A stretch of DNA of 40,255 bases from a virus (IMGVR_UViG_2874951433_000007:1-40255); one strand, 5' to 3'. Shown: positions 4,886 through 5,365, counted from the first letter of the stretch. Notes: generated by a model from the letters alone, not told the origin. Made by a program: numbers and translations.

Positions 4886-5006
4886 TTCATTGCTCCAGAC
4901 GAATGATATGATGCAACCATGATGTGATTGCATACCGAAATGGTACTATTGAGTATTTATCCAGTAAGTTACGATGCCATTCCACCCAATTGGTGAGGCA
5001 TCAAGG

Positions 5007-5267
5007 ATGTACAGCAAATACGACGAGGCGCAGTTTCACTTGAGACTTCCGCATGAACTCCACGCGAAAATTAAGCAGCGTGCGAAGATGAATAACAGGT
5101 CTCTGAACTCAGAGATAATTGCAGCGATTGAAGAATCACTGGATAAACAAAACTCTGCATCAGTTTACATTGACGATGCAGAGCGTATGGCAGAACAACA
5201 ATCCGATATGGTTAAGAAAATTGTCTTTGATACGCTCAAAGAGCTATATAAAAAAGACAGCAGCTAA
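5007..5267 (+). CDS. mnt: Mnt-like ribbon-helix-helix repressor (immI region remnant)
   Basis: FHLRLPHELHAKIKQRAKMNNRSLNSEII... and C-terminal DAERMAEQQSDMVKKIVFDTLKELYKK match recalled P22 Mnt; start at ATG 5007 (aagg RBS); no arc/ant adjacent. Confidence 0.75.
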   Translation: MYSKYDEAQFHLRLPHELHAKIKQRAKMNNRSLNSEIIAAIEESLDKQNSASVYIDDAERMAEQQSDMVKKIVFDTLKELYKKDSS

Positions 5268-5287
5268 CCATCAGTTACGGAGGATTT

Positions 5288-5365
5288 ATGCAAAGAGATA
5301 TGCTGAATATTGCGTTCTACATATTTGGTTTTTGCACGTTCCTGGTGTTTGCGAAGCTATTCTGA
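5288..5365 (+). CDS. Hypothetical 25-aa hydrophobic peptide downstream of mnt
   Basis: MQRDMLNIAFYIFGFCTFLVFAKLF; RBS acggagga 3-9 nt upstream; below ORF-track cutoff; overlaps 3' end of convergent ejection-protein gene. Confidence 0.25.
   Translation: MQRDMLNIAFYIFGFCTFLVFAKLF

Follow-up and report, generated by a model that had tools for sequence, protein, structure and literature searches.

The virus-derived sequence IMGVR_UViG_2874951433_000007 (positions 1-40255; the whole stretch of 40,255 nucleotides that was analyzed is referred to here as the window) is filled, in reverse orientation, by a complete P22-like (Lederbergvirus) prophage. The subject of this analysis is the prophage gene for a Mnt-family repressor, mnt (5007-5267, plus strand), together with a 25-codon open reading frame (ORF) downstream of it (5288-5365, plus strand). 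An initial annotation made from the DNA alone had placed mnt at the canonical immI position between the ejection genes and the tailspike, and this is the case: the gene stands at the immI or "ant moron" site, on the strand opposite to the late operon. On one side lies a gp16-type DNA ejection gene (5357-7750, minus strand), the last late gene ahead of the moron, which converges on mnt and the small ORF. Its product has an N-terminal SLT lytic transglycosylase domain (Pfam SLT, E = 2.8e-25), and RefSeq names the gene at homologous loci "P22-gp16 family phage DNA ejection protein" or "lytic transglycosylase domain-containing protein". On the other side, and divergent from mnt, lies a tailspike gene of the P22 gene 9 or Sf6 gene 14 type (3173-4885, minus strand; Pfam Head_binding, E = 1.4e-63), whose N-terminus is homologous to those of Sf6, HK620, and Sf101 and whose Shine-Dalgarno (SD) sequence, GGAG, is the complement of 4893-4896. 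The intergenic region between the tailspike gene and mnt is present as described, with its length corrected from 120 to 121 bp (4886-5006). In P22-like phages the hypervariable "ant moron" occupies the stretch from gene 16 to gene 9; in the window mnt is its sole immI gene, accompanied by one short ORF, making this a Mnt-only ant moron.

The initial annotation called the gene product a clear Mnt homolog, and protein comparisons fully support this. The 86-residue protein starts MYSKYDEAQFHLRLP and is preceded by an SD sequence, GAGG, at 4995-4998. Its N-terminal part is a ribbon-helix-helix (RHH) domain (Pfam Arc, PF03869, E = 2.3e-14, residues 7-48) and its C-terminal part a tetramerization helix (Pfam Repressor_Mnt, PF11423, E = 3.4e-14, residues 57-82). 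It matches the Protein Data Bank entries 1MNT (E = 1.3e-18) and 1QEY, the tetramerization-domain entry (E = 1.6e-8), and is 47.5% identical to P22 Mnt by tblastn. An alternative start at the ATG at 4974 was rejected, as this codon falls within the predicted -10 box of the mnt promoter and RefSeq takes the 86-residue form.

The absence of arc and ant noted in the initial annotation was borne out by tblastn over the whole 40-kb window, in which neither the P22 Arc, Ant, SieA, and ORF59 proteins nor a second set of Arc, P22AR, and KilA queries found anything significant. Two Arc queries gave no match below E = 0.5 to an arc gene divergent from mnt, the divergent gene being that of the tailspike, and no homolog of P22 Ant or P22AR is present in the moron. 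The arc-ant junction that is the target of sar is absent from the window, and an Rfam scan of 4500-5700 returned no match, with the presence of a sar model in Rfam left unchecked. In place of the P22 Pant boxes TTGACA/TATATT the window reads ATGGCA/TAAATA, sister lineages match still less well, and no mnt-only locus conserves the Pant -35 and -10.

This Mnt-only arrangement is not novel but an ordinary, already published variant of the P22 second immunity region. Morons with only mnt plus one gene whose function is not known were described in ST64T, ST104, and Para1 (Villafane 2008, PMC2629481, section 15), phage L also has a mnt-only moron (Zaworski 2020, PMC8022706), and the function of such morons is given as unknown in the literature (PMC2629481, PMC8022706). 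The question of an isolated mnt, as first posed, matters little: morons of this kind are common and already covered in the literature. Of 5426 complete E. coli genomes, at least 137 carry 80% or more of window positions 4800-5420.

Alignment (MAFFT) of the tailspike-mnt intergenic regions, from 13 loci first and then from more distant loci, brought out a predicted Mnt operator in the dyad ATACCGAAATGGTAC at 4932-4946 (core TACC-N5-GGTA, center 4939), of which the window holds one exact copy. The sequence ATACCGAAAYGGTAC is invariant in all aligned loci whose Mnt begins MYSKYDEAQF, and every one of these loci, together with near variants from Buttiauxella and Serratia, has ATACC(G/T/A)AAA(T/C)GGTAC. 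This two-fold symmetric block lies directly upstream of the predicted -35 box of Pmnt and aligns, in register and core, with Omnt AGGTCCACCGTGGACCT of P22 and epsilon34 and with AGACCAC(G/T)GTGGTCT of ST64T, ST160, and 720R6. The distance from the dyad center to the first base of the Pmnt -35 is 10 bp in all three Mnt classes, P22 included, and the CC/GG pair at positions 3-4 from the center is invariant across them. The predicted half-site, in turn, co-varies with the N-terminal beta-strand of Mnt over the three classes, GTCCAC going with the strand ARDDPHFNFRMP in P22 and epsilon34, GACCAC with GRDDPQFNLRLP in ST64T, ST160, and 720R6, and TACCGA with YSKYDEAQFHLRLP in the class of the window. 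Work from the Sauer laboratory reportedly showed that Mnt owes its specificity to this strand, by way of Arg2, His6, Asn8, and Arg10; at three of what we take to be the four contact residues of P22 Mnt the window protein differs (Tyr/Lys for Arg2, Gln for His6, and His for Asn8), and it keeps Arg10. Paired with the half-sites GTCCAC, GACCAC, and TACCGA, the three Mnt classes constitute a small, naturally occurring recognition-code series among RHH proteins.

The TACC-N5-GGTA core is found in almost all of about 85 scored loci with the window Mnt type, two having a single change in one arm. Both arms are kept in Buttiauxella and Serratia relatives at a protein identity of only 60-64%; overall, loci of this Mnt type in Escherichia, Salmonella phage VSe13, Buttiauxella, and Serratia conserve the arms amid diverging flanks. 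Two loci (L021 and L044) have a mutated operator arm (TACAGAAATGGTA) beside an intact mnt. A search of the window for a second TACC dyad with up to one mismatch gave only a one-mismatch match within an ORF at 36424, taken as chance. The initial annotation had left the target of Mnt as unknown, and with this single exact operator copy no target is evident elsewhere in the prophage.

The predicted Pmnt (4949-4975, plus strand) consists of a -35 box TTGAGT at 4949-4954 and a -10 box TACGAT at 4970-4975, which align column by column with TTGAGA-17-TATCAT of P22 and with the boxes of ST64T and 720R6; the P22 Pmnt and Pant boxes are our own assignment. Across the three classes the -35 reads TTGAGA, TTGTGG/TTGAGG, and TTGAGT/TTGTTG. 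The spacer is 15 nt in the sub-lineage of the window and 17 nt in most relatives.

A comparison of the window with P22 immI thus shows the same site between genes 16 and 9, the same orientation, the same two-domain protein, and the same geometry of operator, -35, and -10 with a shared CC/GG core, at a Mnt identity of 47.5%. Unlike P22, the window is without arc, ant, sieA, and orf59a and apparently without sar, its Pant hexamers are not conserved, and its operator reads TACCGAAATGGTA in place of the GGTCCACCGTGGACC of P22. Phages ST64T, ST104, L, ST160, and E. coli vB_EcoP-720R6 resemble the window in having mnt as the sole immI gene, divergent from the tailspike; morons of the ST64T type also keep the operator and Pmnt and have one short or unknown ORF downstream. 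They differ from it in the Mnt N-terminus and operator (MGRDDPQFNL and AGACCACGGTGGTCT, against MYSKYDEAQF and TACC-N5-GGTA in the window), have another tailspike leader, and carry a downstream ORF unrelated to that of the window. Much closer are Sf101 (gp14) and IME10, in which mnt, the intergenic region, and the 5' end of the tailspike gene are essentially identical to those of the window (96-97% nucleotide identity). IME10 has the small ORF, and Sf101 is without it and has a different ejection gene. Sf101 annotates its mnt as "partition protein ATPase" or "chromosome segregation ATPase" with a longer start, the Sf101 paper makes no mention of a mnt gene, and IME10 leaves the gene unannotated; both annotations should be corrected to mnt.

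The initial annotation had proposed a different operator, an imperfect palindrome at 4911-4933. An inverted repeat does exist there (ATGCAACCA-tgatg-TGATTGCAT, complementary at 8 of 9 arm positions and abutting the predicted operator), although the string typed for it had one extra t. That this repeat, ATGCAA-N11-TTGCAT, is the Mnt operator, controlling the tailspike gene or, in trans, an Ant-like gene of the nin region, is very improbable. The repeat is real, stands in the interval from mnt to the tailspike, has perfect arms in IME10, and has a center of odd length as in RHH operators, but shuffling the 121-bp region yields an equally good inverted repeat in 6-10% of cases, and no second copy with up to one mismatch, which the initial annotation had suggested looking for, is present in the window. 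The palindrome is limited to the sub-lineage of Sf101, IME10, and the window, and is absent from VSe13, JEP4, and several E. coli prophages with the same Mnt N-terminus; it is thus missing where the DNA-reading strand of Mnt is identical, in these phages and in many E. coli prophages. In the sister sub-lineage, which has the same Mnt strand, a P22-type gene 9 leader (…CCGCAGCATGGCTACGG…) takes its place.

The substitutions within the palindrome follow RNA pairing on the tailspike-sense strand, where the repeat (4911-4933, minus strand) would form a hairpin with a 9-bp stem and a 5-nt loop, 14 nt upstream of the tailspike SD. The one stem mismatch of the window, C.A if read on the plus strand, becomes U.G on the minus strand; at this position IME10 has U-A, and two loci have C-G. 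Other stem variation in the window sub-lineage consists of three single changes whose wobble pairs, G.U or U.G, form in minus-strand RNA alone and two that break a pair. In Escherichia sp. E1V33 both arms have changed in a compensatory manner (ATTCAAT…ATTGAAT, a G-C to T-A double change) while the Mnt N-terminus is unchanged, which again speaks against an operator. Overall, 97.4% of cells pair in minus-strand RNA, with six further pair types and one double change, against about 86% on the plus strand by our own count from the same table; the observed pairing was reached in 9/500 shuffles and the observed covariation score in 36/500. Hairpins also occur at the same place in the P22-type leader (CCGUAGC-CAU-GCUGCGG, with a wobble on the minus strand only), in the Sf6 leader (CCGGACA…UGUCCGG, z = -3.4), and in the Citrobacter and Buttiauxella leaders. 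Counting against a hairpin, the folding z-score of the window stem is an unremarkable -1.35, a weak thermodynamic support, so its case is made by the substitution patterns, themselves of modest strength. Given the minus-strand-only pairing and the hairpins at the same leader position, we read the palindrome as a probable stem-loop in the tailspike leader of the late mRNA rather than an operator, a reading we regard as moderately supported. Such a hairpin would be a structure that recurs at the same place in unrelated sequence among P22-like phages. The dyad ATACCGAAATGGTAC at 4932-4946 is the better operator candidate and the site most likely bound by Mnt.

The AntA-like protein that the initial annotation placed in the nin region is likewise present, as an "Ant"-type protein with Rha-N and KilAC domains (24225-24947; Pfam ANT, E = 7.7e-33; PHROG 63 "anti-repressor Ant", E = 4e-100), with the strand of its gene corrected to minus. 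A link from Mnt to this gene, which lies in the nin operon, found no support, as neither the palindrome nor the TACC dyad recurs there and the gene has no intergenic space upstream, overlapping both the upstream ORF (24940-25116) and the downstream YbcO-like ORF (23935-24225). Because both neighboring genes are overlapped, the Ant-like gene probably lacks its own promoter and operator, and control would fall to PR/CI.

Sequence variation among relatives indicates that mnt itself is maintained. The distinct changes in the gene comprise 44 synonymous and 40 nonsynonymous ones, where 22.6% synonymous would be expected (p = 3e-9), and the RHH domain alone has 27 synonymous and 15 nonsynonymous changes. 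The reading frame is unbroken in about 100 loci, and the exact protein occurs on 645 contigs. The gene is under purifying selection and is not a decaying relic. A leftover status was raised as a possibility for phage L (PMC8022706). For the window, it is improbable that mnt is a non-functional leftover of a degrading immI. The loss of arc, ant, Pant, and apparently sar, the 15-nt Pmnt spacer of the window sub-lineage, and occasional broken copies would fit such decay, but the strong synonymous excess is most marked in the RHH domain, the frame is intact in about 100 loci, and the operator arms are kept across genera while adjoining bases diverge. The broken copies are rare: one locus (L078) has a premature stop, and in a Citrobacter locus (L222) Tyr5 is changed to a stop (4001-4015), together with a mutation in an operator arm (TACCGAAATAGTA, at about 3925-3940).

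The distribution of the window Mnt type also bears on its origin. In four loci, those of JEP4 (L003, 2743-5703), E. coli MS10495 (L010, 2589-5337), Serratia (L221, 783-3431), and Citrobacter (L222, 4001-6467), a second RHH gene, here termed mnt2, is divergent from ant-type genes encoding P22AR, BRO, or KilA proteins, with an arc gene ahead of these where annotated (L010). The MYSKYDEAQF-type Mnt still adjoins the tail gene in these phages and is convergent with the ant operon. Since the window Mnt type persists beside a full mnt2-arc-ant set, it is not simply what an arc-ant deletion leaves behind, and a description of mnt as orphaned by arc/ant loss appears too simple.

These double-Mnt phages also enter into the question of what Mnt controls. 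One alternative holds that Mnt serves mainly in trans immunity, silencing the ant promoter of superinfecting or co-resident P22-like phages that carry TACC-N5-GGTA and thereby sparing the CI-type repressor. Mnt made by a P22 prophage represses ant of superinfecting P22, and selection on both mnt and its operator specificity despite the absence of ant, along with three specificity classes as diversification of immunity types predicts, would suit such a role. We nevertheless consider it unlikely as the main function. The operator and Mnt type of the window were found beside arc-ant in none of 50,697 GenBank phage records or examined IMG/VR loci (among the matches listed in the scan), and in the double-Mnt phages ant adjoins a different RHH protein, Mnt2, presumably its controller.

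A second alternative is that Mnt regulates the tailspike gene, either by repressing a weak residual Pant-like promoter that reads into that gene or by acting as a roadblock or modulator of late read-through; a role of the ant moron in tailspike expression was suggested by Villafane et al. (PMC2629481, section 15). The window Mnt type does stand beside a tail gene in nearly all of about 90 loci examined, among them phages with a separate mnt2-arc-ant and one Serratia phage whose tail gene is not of the P22 kind. The operator precedes the start codon of the tailspike gene by 47 bp, and a degenerate -10, TAAATA, aligns with the P22 Pant -10. Against this, the -35 and -10 of Pant are conserved in no lineage, and the promoter scan found no minus-strand, tailspike-directed promoter-like site. 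Antiterminated late transcription complexes are, moreover, poorly blocked by small repressors. In Serratia a terminator lies between the operator and the tail gene, so that an operator-proximal promoter could not serve it. We hold tailspike control to be as doubtful as a primary role in trans immunity. The Serratia marcescens terminator (L221, at about 600-700) is an intrinsic one, GCCAGCCTAACCGCTGGC followed by seven T on the late strand, standing immediately upstream of the non-P22-type tail gene.

The 25-codon ORF downstream of mnt was first noted as hydrophobic and well provided with a ribosome-binding site, and this description stands. Its product, MQRDMLNIAFYIFGFCTFLVFAKLF, has a hydrophobic core of 18 residues (mean Kyte-Doolittle value 2.05), an SD sequence GGAGG at 5279-5283 lies 4 nt upstream of the start, and its final 9 nt are shared with the 3' end of the ejection gene that converges on it. 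The reading frame is unbroken in each of 27 nucleotide variants, drawn from 85 loci, as well as in four additional E. coli genomes. Its distinct changes, 19 synonymous and 24 nonsynonymous where 23% synonymous would be expected (p = 0.0018), replace chiefly hydrophobic residues with hydrophobic ones, and the other two frames look neutral (12/43 and 7/43). The homology block begins no more than 1 nt from the ATG of the small ORF whatever lies upstream, be it mnt, a gene for a 161-residue lipoprotein, or the Sf6 tailspike leader, and it travels with the 3' end of the SLT/Sf6-type gp16 gene. Among 5426 E. coli genomes, 316 carry the ORF, always without annotation; the exact peptide is absent from a collection of 15 billion proteins, has no match in PHROGs, and gave no hit in a string search of the literature. 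On the evidence of its conservation it appears to be a real unannotated gene, and it would be a candidate small membrane-protein gene that about 6% of complete E. coli genomes carry and no pipeline calls.

The small ORF shares the slot of P22 sieA, downstream of mnt on the same strand and both abutting and convergent with the 3' end of the gp16 gene. SieA belongs with other membrane proteins that are expressed by prophages and encoded where gene 16 ends (PMC10883804). The membrane embedding of the 25-residue peptide is a prediction; it is much shorter than SieA (about 160 residues) and has no sequence similarity to it. A remnant of sieA or of orf59a was considered as its origin and rejected for lack of similarity. 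Phages 720R6 and VSe13, like many E. coli prophages, carry as an insertion a conserved gene for a predicted lipoprotein of 161 residues (MKKSLLIIPLLLAGC…), which lies between mnt and the small ORF in loci L012, L013, L223-L226, L007, and L002. Buttiauxella has a different lipoprotein gene in the same slot, along with a 71-residue ORF with a hydrophobic N-terminus, likely encoding a protein with a single transmembrane segment.

Taken together, these features lead us to favor a reading of the locus as a reduced ant moron, to which we assign a probability of roughly 55%. The locus would be the immI remnant of a P22-like prophage of the Sf6/Sf101/IME10 type, in which a tetrameric RHH Mnt is expressed from its own Pmnt on the strand opposite to the late operon. 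We infer that Mnt would bind the single dyad at 4932-4946 abutting the Pmnt -35, as Omnt does in P22, and, with Pant, arc, and ant all missing, Pmnt itself would be its one remaining cis target. As an autoregulator, Mnt would hold a small prophage-expressed transcript at a low, steady level. This transcript would carry mnt and, 20 nt downstream, the 25-codon ORF, which would be translated from it; in relatives the corresponding slot on the mnt strand holds a lipoprotein gene, another membrane-protein gene, or sieA. Mnt may also act in trans, silencing ant at its promoter in incoming relatives whose operator is of the same type.

Several points weigh against this reading. P22 Mnt is a stimulator and not a repressor of Pmnt, which makes the sign of the putative autoregulation uncertain, and an autoregulator without other targets is an unsatisfying reason for strong conservation. 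A generic promoter scan gave Pmnt no score, the promoter being assigned through homology, and its 15-nt spacer is suboptimal and predicts a weak promoter. With regard to a transcript carrying cargo, the tail-side mnt of JEP4, MS10495 (L010), and Serratia (L221) has no downstream cargo on its strand, and the Sf6 copy of the small ORF has a poor SD and no detectable promoter, which argues against its expression. With regard to the trans role, no phage with the window operator before ant was found among the IMG/VR matches listed.

Beyond the reduced moron, we tentatively raise two linked possibilities, less likely than the favored reading and more likely than any of the alternatives above: that the 25-codon ORF encodes a genuine inner-membrane peptide, and that the MYSKYDEAQF-type Mnt is an independent tail-proximal regulatory module. 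The peptide might serve as a minimal factor for superinfection exclusion, or act in the manner of a toxin against the cognate ejection-protein conduit, a sie-like role being speculation. The module may have its own operator code, and it coexists with a full immI in some phages.

Elsewhere at these loci, the gp16-type ejection protein of the window has 797 residues, and that of many relatives, including Sf6 gp13, has 665 residues and another N-terminus; only the 3' end is common to the two gene types, along with the small ORF. In P22 (L005, 1056-1275), a direct repeat GCxTGGCTACGGTGAATTTT flanks a segment of about 100 bp that lies past the ant terminator and before gene 9, and the same TGGCTACGG motif forms the junction of mnt-only morons with the gene 9 leader, which suggests a recombination "boundary sequence". 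In the IMG/VR operator scan, the matches without mnt look random among the matches listed. One group, an unrelated GC-rich phage (L105, L110, L128, L144, and L161), has the 15-mer ATACCGAAACGGTAC, in most of these contigs as two copies spaced 515 bp apart. Every copy follows closely on a TATATAC box, a -10-like element, and precedes a small ORF; a repeated promoter element that resembles the operator by coincidence is the probable explanation, with no link to Mnt established. Beyond the tailspike gene, the window carries gtrA, gtrB, and gtrC-like genes (552-3106, plus strand). Finally, JEP4 (L003, 2743-2935) retains part of the canonical start and leader of the tailspike gene (…ctgtcatttaatttgctccag…) as a remnant, some 190 bp away from where a different tail spike gene is annotated to start, which suggests that the 5' end of its tailspike gene was replaced.

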